A stretch of 63,228 nucleotides of DNA, counting the filler. It is 3 parts of 3 records of this genome, joined end to end, with 100 filler letters (N's around TTAATTAATTAA, not from the genome) between each part and the next. Parts side by side here need not be neighbours in the genome. Positions count along the whole stretch, not along the records: positions 52,497 to 63,228 come from SRR22947727_1907; 2 more parts are not named here. One strand, given 5' to 3'. The notes beneath the pieces were generated by a model. It saw only the letters and a list, made by a program, of their open reading frames with translations. It was not told the origin of the DNA and did not search any database. Below, in pieces: positions 30,599 to 60,258 of the stretch. Made by a program: the position numbers and the translations under genes. Within the stretch, counting starts at the first letter, position 1. Every line of letters starts with the position of its first letter.

Positions 30599-30698
30599 NN
30601 NNNNNNNNNNNNNNNNNNNNNNNNNNNNNNNNNNNNNNNNNNTTAATTAATTAANNNNNNNNNNNNNNNNNNNNNNNNNNNNNNNNNNNNNNNNNNNN
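30599..30698. other. artificial contig linker
   Basis: 44 N + TTAATTAATTAA (stop in all six frames) + 44 N; gene content changes from cyanobacterial to gammaproteobacterial across it. Confidence 0.97.
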
Positions 30699-52396: not shown

Positions 52397-52496
52397 NNNN
52401 NNNNNNNNNNNNNNNNNNNNNNNNNNNNNNNNNNNNNNNNTTAATTAATTAANNNNNNNNNNNNNNNNNNNNNNNNNNNNNNNNNNNNNNNNNNNN
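52397..52496. other. artificial contig linker
   Basis: 44 N + TTAATTAATTAA + 44 N; composition drops to AT-rich alphaproteobacterial-like sequence. Confidence 0.97.
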
Positions 52497-52560: not shown

Positions 52561-52639
52561 GTAAGCTGTGTCCGTTGGTAGAGAAATTAGGATATACCAT
52601 GCTCCATTCAATTTCTTAATCAAAAGACTTACGGCTTAC
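52561..52639. repeat. 79-bp imperfect inverted repeat/hairpin at the integrase breakpoint
   Basis: GTAAGCTGT...ACGGCTTAC termini with internal GTC/GAC, TTGGT/ATCAA and AGAAATT/AATTTCT pairs. Confidence 0.6.
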
Positions 52640-53050
52640 AGTGGCGTCCACTAGATATCTTACAGACCGCTGAACCCCTGAAGCAAAGGTCGAAGATCGA
52701 TTGGCGCCCTTCATGAACACATAAGTCTGAGTAGCCTCAGAAAGCCGTGGAGCATCTGTCGTAGAGTTGTCTGCAGTCATAGGACCGTTCGTAGGGCTGA
52801 GCCGTTGATCTGTCTCAAAGTATGTCCATAGACATTGACTGATGTCTCTACGCTTCAAGACCGCCCACTGATCCTCCAACTGTGAGCTGAGGATAATCGA
52901 ATATCGAGCAGCTTGATGTCTAGAGGATGTATGTAGGCAGACCTCGATACGATCTCTTGAGCAGTGCCTTTGAAGGCGCTTGGGAACTCTACGGGAGAAG
53001 TAATAGGTATTCCCTTTGAGTTTCAAATAATGTGCGTTTTGGTGGCCCAC
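52616..53050 (-). pseudogene. truncated tyrosine integrase (DUF6538-like N-terminal domain plus start of core-binding domain)
   Basis: YL..KG.TYYF.RRVP..L...I..CLHT.S...A motif and PRLSEA..Y...KG..R..TF; stops before any catalytic domain. Confidence 0.75.
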
Positions 53051-53125
53051 GCGGTGGTCTCCCCAGATAACCCGACAAGGATATCGTTGGAAAACAGTGG
53101 GTTAGCTTGAGATTAACTGAGGAAG

Positions 53126-53326
53126 TGGCGCTGTGCTGAGTGTTGAAAGCTCCCTGCTCTCGCAAATTTCCCTGTTAACAGGGAAATAAACAGGGAAAAT
53201 CAACAAAAATGGCTTCTAATTATCACTCAAAGCCCAAGGTTTGTTGGCTAATGAGGATTGTGCCTTCAAATTTAACAGGGAATTTAAATCGTAAGAACAG
53301 CGAAATACTGCGTTCCAAACAACAAA
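53126..53326. mobile_element. probable end/attachment region of an integrative element: palindrome plus iterated AACAGGGAA
   Basis: Perfect 22-bp palindrome ATTTCCCTGTTAACAGGGAAAT (53166-53187); AACAGGGAA again at 53189 and 53274, AACAGCGAA at 53296. Confidence 0.6.
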
Positions 53327-56343: not shown

Positions 56344-56592
56344 ATGTTAAACTTCGACAAAGGCGATGGCCTAATAAAAGAAATCATGAATTCCACAGAC
56401 CCAATAAGTGTGGTTCGGCAGCACGTGCTTAAGAATGGCGGCTTTTGGAATGACACCGATAAAGTAAATAAATCCGCCATTTTTGAAATTCATCTCTATG
56501 GCGTCAGGGGCATTGGCCTGGGAGCAGATGAAGCGTTGAAGAACTGGCTAGTTAGCGCCAGAAACTCTTTGGAAAACTCCAGACAGTGCTAA
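56344..56592 (+). CDS. small hypothetical protein
   Basis: GGAG RBS before ATG 56344; DP...R..VL..GG.W and FEI.L.G..G.G.....W pattern reminiscent of a Rhodobacterales conserved hypothetical family. Confidence 0.65.
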   Translation: MLNFDKGDGLIKEIMNSTDPISVVRQHVLKNGGFWNDTDKVNKSAIFEIHLYGVRGIGLGADEALKNWLVSARNSLENSRQC

Positions 56593-58148
56593 GCTTTTAG
56601 CGATATTGAAAACTTCGCGCCCCCTTGACGTACATTACTTACAGATACTTTGCCGCCATGGGCGTCAACGACCTGCTTCACAATAAACAAACCTAATCCT
56701 GAACTCGCATCCTCTTCTGCGGTGCCTTCACGATGGGTGAAAAATCTTTCAAAAATTTTATCTAGCTGTTCTTCTGGAATTCCTGGCCCTGTGTCTTCCA
56801 CAGACAGAGTAAGATCCTTCATCCAGCGCCTCTTTAAAGAAATTGTAACTGTGCCTCTTGGCCTAGCAAAGCTAATCGCATTCTCGATTAAGTTGATGAC
56901 CACTTGTGCAAAACGATCCGGCAAACCAACAAATTGTATATTTGGTGCAATATCAGACATTATTTTCACGCCCGGAGTAGCTTTGGCTTCACGGAAATGA
57001 TCAACAAGATCATTGAGTAGAACCGACAGGTTGAATTGCTCCCTCTTGGCTGCCACGAGCTCATGATCAACTGTTGCTGCCTCTGATATTTCACTAACAA
57101 GCTTGTTGATCCGAATTGCTTGTTTCTGAATGGTTGTTATAGTGCCCTGCACCTTTTCCTGATCATTCAGATTGCCTTTTATTACTTCGGTATGCGCAAT
57201 AATTGAGGAAACCGGATTTTTGATCTCATGGGAAATATCAGCAGCAAACCGCTCTTTATCCGCAAAGATGCGCGCTAAATTATCATTCAACTTTATGAGG
57301 TTTTTATAGACCAAACCAATTTCATCTTTGCGCTTCTCAAGGCTTTGGATTCGAAAATCCGTAAGGTGCTGCGCCACATCATCAGATGTCAGTTTTTTGT
57401 TTAACCGCCTTGAAAGCCGTCGCAACGGAAACGCCAATGAAAAGGCAAAGACCGAACCGATTAATAAAGTTATGCCCGATAATCCAATCAAAACCCACAG
57501 ACGCGCATTGTTATCTTTTAGATATATCTCACGCAGGTGATACGCATCTTTTAGATCCACAATAGCGATTGTCTTTTTGTCAAACTTAATCGGCATGGCA
57601 TATCGTAATTCATACCCATCCGCATTTGCTTCAATCAGGTGGTACTGCGCAGAAAATCTTGCTCGACGATACATGATAGGATCAGTAAGCAGGTTGAAAT
57701 CCACTAATCTCTTATAAGAATAAAACAAAAGCTCCGCAATTTTCGGTAGCTTAGGTTGCTCTGCCAGTTTTGGCCCTTCTGATATAATTTCAGAAACAAT
57801 AATTTTGCTTTTCCGATAAGGATTGTTAGTTTGAAAAAATGCAAATCCATCATCGTTGACCTCATCAATGAAGAAGGGACGGATTTCTAAAGCATCCGAC
57901 AAAACCGTATCTAGTTGATTGAGCGTATTGGTAATCTCAATCATTTTATCAAAACGGCTCAAATCTGTTCTAAGCAATGTGGGTTTCACGATTTCAGAAA
58001 CTAGAACACCTTGAGAATATAACGCGCTGCGTTTGTTATTAATTTCAGAGTAAGCCGTATCCTCGGTCAAAAAGATAAATGCCCAAAGCGCCGCATTTAT
58101 AACGATCAGGATAATAAATATCTTTACGAAGATACTGCGGAACACCAT
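56589..58148 (-). CDS. sensor histidine kinase, ChvG/ExoS-like paralog
   Basis: Two TMs around a periplasmic domain, HAMP (RKDEIG), FAADISHEIKNP H-box, NLIENAISF, DTGPGI, SGLGL. Confidence 0.92.
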   Translation of the reverse strand: MVFRSIFVKIFIILIVINAALWAFIFLTEDTAYSEINNKRSALYSQGVLVSEIVKPTLLRTDLSRFDKMIEITNTLNQLDTVLSDALEIRPFFIDEVNDDGFAFFQTNNPYRKSKIIVSEIISEGPKLAEQPKLPKIAELLFYSYKRLVDFNLLTDPIMYRRARFSAQYHLIEANADGYELRYAMPIKFDKKTIAIVDLKDAYHLREIYLKDNNARLWVLIGLSGITLLIGSVFAFSLAFPLRRLSRRLNKKLTSDDVAQHLTDFRIQSLEKRKDEIGLVYKNLIKLNDNLARIFADKERFAADISHEIKNPVSSIIAHTEVIKGNLNDQEKVQGTITTIQKQAIRINKLVSEISEAATVDHELVAAKREQFNLSVLLNDLVDHFREAKATPGVKIMSDIAPNIQFVGLPDRFAQVVINLIENAISFARPRGTVTISLKRRWMKDLTLSVEDTGPGIPEEQLDKIFERFFTHREGTAEEDASSGLGLFIVKQVVDAHGGKVSVSNVRQGGAKFSISLKA

Positions 58149-58837
58149 CAGTCGGCTTTCAACTTATAGCCCAAACCATGGACTGTCGCGATTATGGAAC
58201 AGTCTTCATCGCTAGACTTAAGTTTTTGGCGAATATTGCGGACATGGCTGTCTATGGTCCGATCTGTCACATGAATGGCACCTGCATAAGCTGCATCCAT
58301 GAGCTGACTGCGGCTTTTCACCAAACCGGGTCGTTCTGCCAAAGCTGCAAGCAAAAGACATTCTGTAACTGTAAGATCTATCGGAAACTCCCTCCAAGAT
58401 ACCAAATGGCGACTTTGGTCTATGACCAAATCGCCCGCAATAATCTGAGAAGATTTGCCCTTAACCGAGGCATCAACATGGCGACGCAAGACCGCAGCAA
58501 CGCGCGCCAGTAAAAGGTGTTTACTAAAAGGTTTGGTTACATAATCATCAGCGCCAAGCGTAAAACCTATGATTTGGTCTTGTTCTTCATCCTTTGACGA
58601 TAGAAAAATGACAGGTAGGTTGGACTTAATCACTCTGAGTTCTTTTAAGAGATCATAACCACTCATTTCCGGCATTTTAATATCGCAAATTGCCAATGCA
58701 ATTTCGTTTCTTTTCAAGTGGCTTATCGCCTTAAGAGGGGAGCCAAAAGCGTCTATGCGATAACCCTCTGCCTCAAGCATAGATTGCAACGGGTTTAAAA
58801 TTTCCGGTTCGTCATCAACAATCATCAGTCTTTGCAT
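58148..58837 (-). CDS. OmpR-family response regulator, ChvI-like paralog
   Basis: DD, DIKMP, PVIFLSSKDEE, GADDYVTKPFS; ChvI-like LTVTE..LL.ALA.RPG.VKSR.QLMDAAY and DRTIDSH; TGATG overlap with the kinase. Confidence 0.93.
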   Translation of the reverse strand: MQRLMIVDDEPEILNPLQSMLEAEGYRIDAFGSPLKAISHLKRNEIALAICDIKMPEMSGYDLLKELRVIKSNLPVIFLSSKDEEQDQIIGFTLGADDYVTKPFSKHLLLARVAAVLRRHVDASVKGKSSQIIAGDLVIDQSRHLVSWREFPIDLTVTECLLLAALAERPGLVKSRSQLMDAAYAGAIHVTDRTIDSHVRNIRQKLKSSDEDCSIIATVHGLGYKLKAD

Positions 58838-58854
58838 CAAATTAGCTCCATCAC

Positions 58855-58989
58855 TTTGTGCAAAACTGGCACAGACTCATGAGTATCTCAAAGTGAAATA
58901 ACGCTTCTGCACATATTCTGCATAATCAATCACACTAACTGCAAATATCTCTCAAACTGGCTGCACATGTCTCTGCCAAACATTTCACA
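58855..58989 (+). promoter_or_regulatory. phased TGCA direct-repeat operator array, copy 2 (divergent promoter region)
   Basis: TGCACA 58908, TGCATA 58919, TGCAAA 58940, TGCACA 58962 (same spacing as copy 1); AAACAT at 58978; extra TTTGCACAAA on the minus strand at 58855-58864. Confidence 0.7.
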
Positions 58990-59095
58990 ACAGGTCGAGG
59001 CATCGATCTGTCGAGCAGAGCGAGTTGTAGGTTCCTCTCCCTTTACGGCTTCGCTCCTAGCCCTGGTGGTCTCCCCTCCCAACCACCGGGGCTAG
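58990..59095 (+). ncRNA. candidate three-hairpin RNA 2 with anti-SD loops (AbcR/cuckoo-like sRNA or structured leader)
   Basis: ACAGGTCGA-GGCA-TCGATCTGT; GAGCGAGTTGTAGG-TTCCTCTCCC-TTTACGGCTTCGCTC; 14-bp stem CTAGCCCTGGTGGT-CTCCCCTCCCA-ACCACCGGGGCTAG. Confidence 0.72.
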
Positions 59096-59116
59096 TTAAC
59101 CAAGAAAGGAATGAAA

Positions 59117-59200
59117 ATGGAGACACTTCAAATATTCACAGCTGGAGAAATCTTGTTCTTCATTGCAGCCGCAGGTTTGTACATTTGGGGATCCAAATGA
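59117..59200 (+). CDS. 27-aa single-TM small protein (not in the ORF track)
   Basis: AGAAAGGA RBS; METLQIFTAGEILFFIAAAGLYIWGSK; the stop overlaps the next ATG (ATGA). Confidence 0.6.
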   Translation: METLQIFTAGEILFFIAAAGLYIWGSK

Positions 59201-59481
59201 ATAATCTGCCCAAGAAACCTGAAGCCGAGACCAAAGTAGCAGTGAAGTCAAAAAAATATTCAATAAAACAGCATCAGCTTTATCTGATGATTTTTTTGGT
59301 CGTATTTTTCTCCCTAATTGGACTTTCAGCCTTCGCCTCACCAGGCGTTGAATGGAAAGAAGAAGTGGACGATTGGTGGGAGAGCATCTTCAGCCGTCAG
59401 AGCCATCCGCAAAAACTCATTGAAGGAAATAGATTCTATTCTCCTCAGAATGCTTCAATTGAAATTCCACCGCAGAACTAA
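59197..59481 (+). CDS. small membrane/exported hypothetical protein
   Basis: Basic N-terminus, hydrophobic segment ending AFA (possible signal cleavage site); translationally coupled to the upstream small ORF. Confidence 0.6.
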   Translation: MNNLPKKPEAETKVAVKSKKYSIKQHQLYLMIFLVVFFSLIGLSAFASPGVEWKEEVDDWWESIFSRQSHPQKLIEGNRFYSPQNASIEIPPQN

Positions 59482-59526
59482 AATTTTTGCACGTGTTTTC
59501 TAATCTTCAAAAAAAGGAAATCAAAA

Positions 59527-60258
59527 ATGAAACCTATTTTCAAAACTATTTCAGCTGCTTTATTGTTTCTTGCAAGCGCAGTTCAATCCGAAGAAGCCAA
59601 ATTTAAGATTCAGGGTGACACCCTATTTTACAGCACTGAAGACGAAGGAATTACAAAGGATTTTGTAAGTATTTCAGACGCTTTACATTTCCGGACCATA
59701 TTACATGATAATCCTGAAATTCTGCGTATTAACCTCTACTCATATGGCGGGCATGTAGAGGCCGGCTTGGAAATAGCGCGTATCGTCAGTGACTTTGAAA
59801 TAGACACTGAAATTTCAAAAGAATGCTCTAGCGCCTGTGTTCCTATATTTTTAGCAGGACAGAACCGCGTACTTAAAAAAGGAGCATTGATCGGGTTCCA
59901 CCGCCCTAACTGGCAGCAGGATTCGATGGAACGTTACTATGATGCCAAAAAGGAAGACTTCGGCTGGAATACGCCATTTGAATTTTCAAACTGGGTTCAA
60001 AAGGACACGTTCGAAGTCGCAACGCAGCTCTATGATAGATTTTCTCAAGCTGGAGTTGCACCCGAATTCATATCTCAAGCCTTCAAATATGACATTGAGC
60101 AAATGTGGTACCCTTCGCGCACCGAGCTTGTGAATTTTGGTGTGGTAAATCTGGTTGAGCTAGCCGCCATGAGGCCCCCTACCCGTCCAACAAATATTAA
60201 AAAAATCGAAGACGCTTTTCAAGAAGTGCAGATCAGTCAACTCGAAGAAACCGAATGA
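59527..60258 (+). CDS. exported ClpP/crotonase-like fold protein (COG3904-type)
   Basis: Signal peptide; L.S.GG.V..G..IA, C.SAC..IF.AG..R......IGFH motifs; AAGGA RBS. Confidence 0.75.
   Translation: MKPIFKTISAALLFLASAVQSEEAKFKIQGDTLFYSTEDEGITKDFVSISDALHFRTILHDNPEILRINLYSYGGHVEAGLEIARIVSDFEIDTEISKECSSACVPIFLAGQNRVLKKGALIGFHRPNWQQDSMERYYDAKKEDFGWNTPFEFSNWVQKDTFEVATQLYDRFSQAGVAPEFISQAFKYDIEQMWYPSRTELVNFGVVNLVELAAMRPPTRPTNIKKIEDAFQEVQISQLEETE

Follow-up and report, generated by a model that had tools for sequence, protein, structure and literature searches.

A three-hairpin RNA element with anti-Shine-Dalgarno-type loops, candidate leader of a small membrane-peptide operon in marine bacterial DNA

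What could 106 nucleotides (nt) of densely folded RNA be doing between the gene of a response regulator and that of a membrane peptide of only 27 amino acids (aa)? The question is raised by the element at 58990-59095 on the plus strand of a 63,228-nt stretch of DNA (the window), which an initial annotation, made from the letters alone, had suggested may be both an operon leader and a processed, trans-acting small RNA (sRNA). Of these two halves it is the operon leader that fits best: 21 nt separate the element from a small open reading frame (ORF) that is coding, no U-tract follows its last stem, and contigs from RNA libraries run from it into the ORFs. It is thus read here, with slightly better than even confidence, as the structured 5′ leader of an operon that comprises the small ORF, ORF2 and the gene of a 243-aa protein, its loops being of the anti-Shine-Dalgarno type. 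If this holds, an abundant, uncultured marine bacterium has here a structured RNA that is in no catalogue.

The first evidence is the fold itself. When positions 58985-59120 were folded with RNAfold and compared with 200 dinucleotide shuffles, the plus strand gave a minimum free energy of -55.3 kcal/mol, against -38.9 +/- 3.8 for the shuffles (z -4.28), and none of the 200 was equally stable. The reverse complement gave -50.0 kcal/mol with a z of -1.65, and 9 of its 200 shuffles did as well. Four G-U pairs (G58994-U59007, U59025-G59048, U59026-G59047 and U59064-G59088) favour the plus strand over the minus, in agreement with this asymmetry. The three consecutive stems with G-U pairs seen by the initial annotation are accordingly real features of the computed fold, and its proposal of a plus-strand structure at the RNA level is upheld by thermodynamics, by strand asymmetry and by sequence constraint. 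All three hairpins persist whatever flanks are added. The loops of hairpins 2 and 3 are predicted to be open in every context folded (probability of being unpaired 0.80 and 0.99, respectively). Their letters are as first reported, with GUUCC at 59031-59035 in loop 2 and CUCCCA at 59076-59081 in loop 3. The same cannot be said of loop 1, which had been called a GNRA tetraloop: the third base of GGCA is a C, not a purine. Hairpin 1 may be the 5′-terminal hairpin of the transcript. Hairpin 3, which is inverted repeat I1 of the repeat analysis, was the sole strong hairpin with a C-rich loop when the whole window was scanned for C-rich loop motifs; the word CCTCCC occurs 17 times in the window where 30 matches would be expected, and so shows no enrichment.

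The second piece of evidence is constraint, measured by counting variable alignment columns among 12 sequences (Table 1). The non-coding region shows about five-fold less variation than the adjoining synonymous sites, and because these neighbours vary so much more, recent shared ancestry alone is insufficient to explain how little the element has changed. The changes that do occur are few. In hairpin 1, G58997>T breaks a pair in locus L021, and two others fall in the loop: L019 has G58999>A, and a contig of RNA library X11 has A59002>G. In hairpin 2, both changes belong to L019: C59021>T turns a C-G pair into U-G, which still pairs, while G59027>T breaks its pair. The only changes in hairpin 3 are the deletion of one C from the loop, in L001, and A59094>G, which is found in 11/11 relatives and turns U-A into a U-G that remains paired. 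The X11 contig is a natural variant with ten listed differences within 58984-59094, seven of them in hairpin 2; hairpin 1 differs only in its loop and hairpin 3 only by the shared A59094>G. When these differences are applied by position, the three hairpins still form, at -51.9 kcal/mol overall against -55.3. Hairpin 2 then folds at -9.9 rather than -14.7 kcal/mol, and its loop keeps the core CUCUCCC and loses the GUUCC word.

The third piece of evidence concerns what follows hairpin 3. The sequence has no T-run there, as the initial annotation had stated, a terminator scan calls nothing, and the gap of about 20 nt that it gave between stem 3 and the small ORF is 21 nt when counted to the ATG at 59117. 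The small ORF has no Pfam match. It is nonetheless a real gene, because its five variable columns among the 12 sequences comprise four silent third-position changes and a single replacement (E2A); in L001 the peptide is identical to that of the window despite three nucleotide differences. A 42-aa ORF overlapping the element is not a gene, because the 1-nt loop deletion in L001 shifts its frame. The stretch was found in runs of 10 seawater or marine studies, three of them recorded as RNA, in the form of assembled contigs only. Contigs from the RNA libraries lie over the element and the downstream ORFs at 58999-59222 (X13), 59006-59603 (X5), 58948-59681 (X11) and 59070-59674 (X14). Those of X13, X5 and X11, three runs of three studies, are unbroken from element to ORF, and in X13 the word depth is 5.87 in the element and then 7.76 past 59095 into the ORFs. 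This cover fits read-through from the element into the operon, as does the missing U-tract.

Table 1. Features of the locus, with variable alignment columns among 12 sequences where counted.
Feature	Position (strand)	Description	Variable columns
Element	58990-59095 (+)	hairpins 1 to 3	6/106 (5.7%)
Hairpin 1	58990-59011 (+)	58990-58998 paired with 59003-59011; 9 base pairs (bp); loop GGCA	
Hairpin 2	59018-59056 (+)	59018-59029 paired with 59044-59056; 12 bp and bulged U59050; 14-nt loop GGUUCCUCUCCCUU	
Hairpin 3	59057-59095 (+)	59057-59070 paired with 59082-59095; 14 bp; 11-nt loop CUCCCCUCCCA	
Spacer	59096-59116 (+)	A-rich, mostly single-stranded; Shine-Dalgarno AGGA (59107-59110) of the small ORF	1/21
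Small ORF	59117-59200 (+)	27 aa; hydrophobic single-helix membrane peptide METLQIFTAGEILFFIAAAGLYIWGSK; stop overlaps ORF2 start (ATGA)	5/84
ORF2	59197-59481 (+)	94 aa in the window; remnant of a 540-aa membrane-anchored Sel1-repeat protein	44/181 (N-terminal part)
Gene of 243-aa protein	59527-60258 (+)	secreted protein; downstream, same direction as the element	
Further downstream		147-aa ORF, Extensin-like_C protein, MFS transporter	
Upstream half of intergenic region			8/149
CTGCA boxes	58907-58968 (+)	starts 58907, 58918, 58939, 58961; spacing 11, 21, 22; repeat family D4	
Response regulator	58148-58840 (-)	OmpR/CreB-type, divergent from the element; Pfam Response_reg and Trans_reg_C	87/693; 70 on its 231 third codon positions (30%)
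Histidine kinase	56589-58148 (-)	sensor, the regulator's partner; Pfam HisKA and HATPase_c	
144-aa ORF	52616-53050 (-)	DUF6538; cut short	

How might such a leader work? Transcription of the plus strand would start from a promoter just upstream of the element (about 58950-58990), probably under the control of the divergent OmpR-type regulator, which would act at the phased CTGCA boxes. The three hairpins would then fold at the 5′ end of the mRNA or close to it. Because hairpin 3 is not a terminator, transcription would continue past it into the gene of the 27-aa peptide and the translationally coupled ORF2. The two pyrimidine loops would be the active parts; they could imitate the anti-Shine-Dalgarno tail of 16S ribosomal RNA and pair with G-rich ribosome-binding sites. 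Their likeliest targets would lie in cis, namely the AGGA of the small ORF and the GGGGA of ORF2, whose translation would be damped, while the stable 5′ hairpins may protect the message from decay. The presence of a single copy of the element in the related genome G042, whose label is that of a Rhodospirillales metagenome-assembled genome, fits a gene-linked leader rather than a dispersed repeat.

The upstream side of the locus is consistent with such control. Between the regulator gene and the small ORF lies an intergenic region of 276 nt, which holds the element. Three of the nine window-wide matches to CTGCAHAT fall inside the 62-nt span of the CTGCA boxes, all on the plus strand. With the pattern expected for the direct repeats of the OmpR family, the boxes, which precede the presumed promoter, are candidate operator sites of the divergent regulator. 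The best NCBIfam match of this regulator is CreB, below the cut-off of that family, and for its partner kinase the 60 relatives of G042 contain no close ortholog, the best identity being 36%. The similarity of the X11 variant contig to the window starts at 58948, some 40 nt before hairpin 1, which fits a core promoter there, but the sigma-70 scan returned none. Where a small peptide is encoded beside a two-component system, it often serves in feedback regulation of the kinase, as MgrB does for PhoQ. If the leader reading is true, a two-component system, phased operator boxes, a structured leader and a 27-aa membrane peptide form one compact module.

Several results weigh against the leader and the way it would work. 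No sigma-70-like promoter was called between 58841 and 58990, and a comparison by eye revealed no fit to the sigma-54 or sigma-32 consensus. The duplexes between the loops and the ribosome-binding sites in cis are unremarkable: at -7.8 and -6.0 kcal/mol for the small ORF and -10.6 and -9.7 kcal/mol for ORF2, they are within the contig background, which has 5th percentiles of -11.4 (loop 2) and -9.6 (loop 3). In no nested fold does either loop pair with a Shine-Dalgarno sequence; these sites are left free, so that there is no simple sequestering, and the spacer has a probability of 0.50-0.76 of being unpaired. Assembled contigs cannot show RNA ends, RNA levels or a single transcript, and the libraries may contain DNA. 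Three of the contigs start (58999, 59006 and 59070) where the sequence is polymorphic (58997-59002 and 59073); these starts may be assembly breaks, and for this reason they are not taken as 5′ ends of RNA. In the X11 contig the element holds 10 of the 16 differences listed over 734 nt, and hairpin 2 thus appears to evolve fast in that lineage. Finally, none of the 35 pairs changes on both sides in the 8 of the 12 sequences used for the covariation count (5 of them distinct, 97-99% alike); two one-sided changes stay paired and two cells of the count are broken. The initial annotation had named a lack of covariation among homologs as a ground for refuting the structure, and formally this is what is found, yet homologs so close to one another are no evidence against it.

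The strongest competitor of the leader is the other half of the initial reading, a trans-acting anti-Shine-Dalgarno sRNA, made from its own gene or cut from a leader in the A-rich spacer, which would repress other messages through their G-rich ribosome-binding sites, in the manner of sX13, AbcR and CcsR/cuckoo RNAs. It is a serious possibility, though an unlikely one. The size of 106 nt and the build of three hairpins with C-rich loops match those published for sX13 (PMC3771888), loops 2 and 3 are predicted to be open, and CUCCCA is the M1 word of AbcR while GUUCC gives five of the six letters of its M2 word (PMC5461406). The two Rfam models that come closest, sX13 and ar7, are themselves sRNAs of this kind. 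Processing by RNase E is moreover plausible where, as here, a stable 3′ hairpin precedes an A/U-rich single strand. Against this, hairpin 3 has no U-tract and no terminator was called; the RNA-library contigs pass 59095 into the ORFs at similar word depth; the element is single-copy and confined to near-identical strains; GUUCC is altered in the X11 variant; and all family scores are far below threshold.

These scores deserve a closer look. Rfam gives no match at gathering thresholds over the whole window. A permissive local scan (451 nt, E <= 10) yields only sX13 and ar7, both sub-threshold, plus noise. The sX13 model (RF02232) scores 21.3 bits against a gathering score of 50 (E 0.065), and alpha-r7/ar7 (RF02342) scores 19.9 bits against 60 (E 0.076). 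No alpha-r14, alpha-r15 or CcsR-type match appears at E <= 10, and membership of the families that had been proposed for comparison (alpha-r15/AbcR, alpha-r14/cuckoo and CcsR) fails; Rfam presumably holds a model for alpha-r15.

The likeness is one of design, and it can be followed family by family. sX13 is a 115-nt RNA of three stable stem-loops with loops CCCC, CCCC and CCCCC, which pair with G-rich motifs at start sites; alpha-r7 is built alike, and both are stand-alone genes at the polA locus (PMC3771888). The element shares the three hairpins and apical C-rich loops in a similar length. It departs from the rule of four or five C residues in every loop, having CCC in loop 2, CCCC and CCC in loop 3 and GGCA in loop 1, and in place of a free gene at polA it sits beside a two-component system and a small-ORF operon, with no terminator of its own. 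The cuckoo, CcsR (RSs0680) and alpha-r14 RNAs are defined by CCUCCUCCC in every loop of two to four adjacent hairpins, each 24-50 nt long and with a loop of 9-27 nt, and CcsR RNAs are co-transcribed with a small gene (PMC4615179). Here too the hairpins are adjacent and modular and their loops mimic the anti-Shine-Dalgarno sequence. Hairpins 2 and 3 fit the size limits (39 nt each, with loops of 14 and 11 nt); hairpin 1, of 22 nt with a 4-nt loop, lies outside them. CCUCCUCCC is absent from 58990-59095 even with one mismatch allowed, all 14 matches in the window lying elsewhere. Cuckoo RNAs also often occur in several copies, as opposed to the single copy in G042, and the element lies upstream of its small gene, not downstream.

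AbcR, the alpha-r15 RNA of Rhizobiales, carries M1 (CUCCCA) in the loop of its first hairpin and M2 (GUUCCC) in the single strand that links hairpins 1 and 2 (PMC5461406). The resemblance to AbcR-type seeds noted by the initial annotation survives in part: the M1 word is exact and exposed in a loop, but of the third hairpin instead of the first, while the M2 word is matched at five of six letters (GUUCCU), within loop 2 instead of between hairpins, and is changed in the natural variant X11. Contrary to AbcR, the element lacks a Rho-independent terminator. Another comparison is offered by leaders of mobile DNA. The c4 antisense RNA of phages P1 and P7 is a leader RNA that undergoes processing; its loops mask the ribosome-binding site of a small ORF further down the same transcript. 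Like c4 and int-alpA, the element would be a leader, ahead of a small ORF whose end overlaps the gene after it; it lies on integrase-bearing, probably mobile DNA and has loops that could cover ribosome-binding sites. No C4 or int-alpA match is found in Rfam at E <= 10, and the loops complement the start sites of the operon itself no better than background. The element thus resembles C-rich-loop sRNAs in design, is a member of none of these families, and is uncatalogued. If the leader reading is true, it offers a 5′-leader example of loops that mimic the 16S tail, so far found mainly in free-standing sRNAs (sX13, cuckoo/CcsR, AbcR, RNAIII).

Could such loops act on a message elsewhere on the contig? 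The best partner of both is the start region of the 144-aa ORF, whose DUF6538 we take to be the N-terminal domain of an integrase. The duplexes there reach -15.4 and -14.4 kcal/mol, beyond the 1st percentile of the background (-13.9 and -12.9), and this counts in favour of a trans-acting sRNA. With eleven start regions tested, however, a single value past the 1% limit is unremarkable, and any CU-rich loop complements a Shine-Dalgarno sequence by composition alone. Twelve bases of hairpin 3, GGTGGTCTCCCC (59065-59076), recur at 53052-53063, just upstream of the start of the integrase fragment, in what is the ribosome-binding region of its mRNA on the minus strand. Integrase paralogs in G042 keep 11 of these 12 bases; by a rough estimate, not a computed one, the chance of a random 12-nt match on the contig is about 0.1. 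The non-coding stretch in front of the 144-aa ORF (53051-53306) includes the palindrome TTTCCCTGTTAACAGGGAAA and recurs at several places in G042 with 74-90% identity; at one of these, on contig C2 of that genome, the homologous locus is about 4.6 kb away. These observations allow a bolder variant, which we hold to be improbable: the leader would double as a regulator of the island, induced by its own two-component system and cut after hairpin 3, the resulting stable RNA of about 105 nt silencing G-rich start sites in trans, that of the integrase among them. If true, an environmental signal would be coupled both to the stability of the island and to the membrane-peptide operon.

Another reading makes the element a protein-binding leader or a pause or attenuation signal, whose loops would be contacts for a protein instead of pairing modules. 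The constraint extends to loop letters and single-stranded linkers, more than pairing needs, and the downstream genes without known function could include a partner. The loops nevertheless carry no CsrA-type GGA motif, the folds offer no terminator/antiterminator alternative, no known cis-regulatory Rfam family matches, and Pfam reveals no candidate RNA-binding domain in the neighbouring genes; this reading is very doubtful. Just as hard to sustain is the absence of any RNA function, in which the hairpins would be incidental or matter only as DNA (a palindrome, or the relic of a mobile element) and be conserved through the recent common origin of the island: the homologs are indeed all 97-99% identical, which recency could partly explain, no covariation is seen, and an integrase fragment and repeats are typical of mobile DNA, but in the same sequences the adjoining third codon positions vary at 30% against 5.7% of the element's columns, the G-U pairs and the asymmetry in z point to plus-strand RNA and not to duplex DNA, the element is single-copy instead of a dispersed repeat, and its GC content is 61% on a contig of 42%. 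The biology of the structured operon leader is unsurprising, and the support for its function is indirect.

How far does the element extend beyond the window? Relatives of the locus were reached through the 243-aa protein: a peptide-pattern scan led to L001 in G042, and a homolog alignment to 21 marine metagenome loci. The element is present in L001 and in 10 of the 21, with 97-99% identity over 360 nt. Among the remaining 11, L013 and L017 are close relatives whose contigs end before its position, L016 is closely related but has unrelated sequence upstream, and eight are distant, of which seven were negative when searched with a covariance model of the element (R1) and one, L022, has other upstream genes. 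BLAST of the locus against 41 relatives of G001, the genome nearest to the window, gave no match, and against 61 genomes around G042 it found G042 alone, apart from two matches in G085 that are 25-28 nt long and due to chance. Viral contigs, scanned by pattern, returned none, and in plasmids a distant search recovered nothing beyond a short part of the regulator gene, from Rhizobium and Sinorhizobium. With R1, the window alone was matched among 18 sources that included seven of the distant loci, and G042 alone among 151 genomes around it, plus a 17-bit match at E 0.86. In 151 genomes of the order of G001, the single match, of 26.8 bits, was rejected: this hairpin is a terminator with a U-tail, has nothing but letters of the stem in common with the element, and lacks a C-rich loop. 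As far as searched, the element is thus confined to one lineage of marine DNA with an integrase fragment.

The nature of this DNA can be judged from the make-up of the window, which consists of three contigs joined by runs of N around TTAATTAATTAA linkers at 30599-30698 and 52397-52496. The third contig, from 52497 to the end, carries the element and has a GC content of 42%, against 55% for the other two. The second contig matches G001 at 99%, whereas the third has no match in that genome and is instead 93-94% identical to contig C2 of G042. Near its start it carries repeats that are multi-copy in G042, beside the integrase fragment. Because of its absence from G001, its low GC content, the integrase fragment and these repeats, the third contig is probably a mobile island or a mis-binned contig.

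On the regulator side of the intergenic region, the contigs of the regulator gene stop at 58839 in X13 and at 58846 in X14, and one X11 record enters adapter letters at 58846. This is a weak hint, from a comparison of RNA runs only, that the 5′ untranslated region of the regulator mRNA is very short (ATG at 58837). The next positions, 58847-58947, are nearly uncovered in three of the four RNA runs, the regulator-side contigs stopping at 58839-58846. An untranscribed promoter gap was considered here and rejected: uncovered contig data, compared again for RNA runs only, are no evidence of it, and one X11 contig crosses the interval with unlike letters.

Downstream of the small ORF, ORF2 exists in two forms. 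The 540-aa Sel1-repeat form is found in L001 (1281-2903), L015, L018 and, partly, L017, and the short 94-aa form in the window and eight metagenome loci, where about 1.5 kb is missing. In L016, a gene for the 243-aa protein (98% protein identity) is joined to an unrelated upstream region from window position 59478. Together with the two forms of ORF2, this joint at about 59478 makes 59478-59505 a recurrent recombination joint. Inside ORF2, at 59272-59289, a 6-bp hairpin followed by a T-run was called terminator-like on both strands; in the short form of ORF2, it may act as a partial terminator after the small ORF. The 243-aa protein itself has no sequence match in Pfam, NCBIfam or the PDB. It has 19 metagenome homologs, with the invariant motifs GG..EAGLEI, ECSSAC and GFHRP, and one cluster of it counts 1223 member sequences. 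Its relatives at 45-52% identity (L022-L025) have other upstream genes and are without the element; the gene in L022 is preceded by one of helicase-like type and by an HNH-type ORF.

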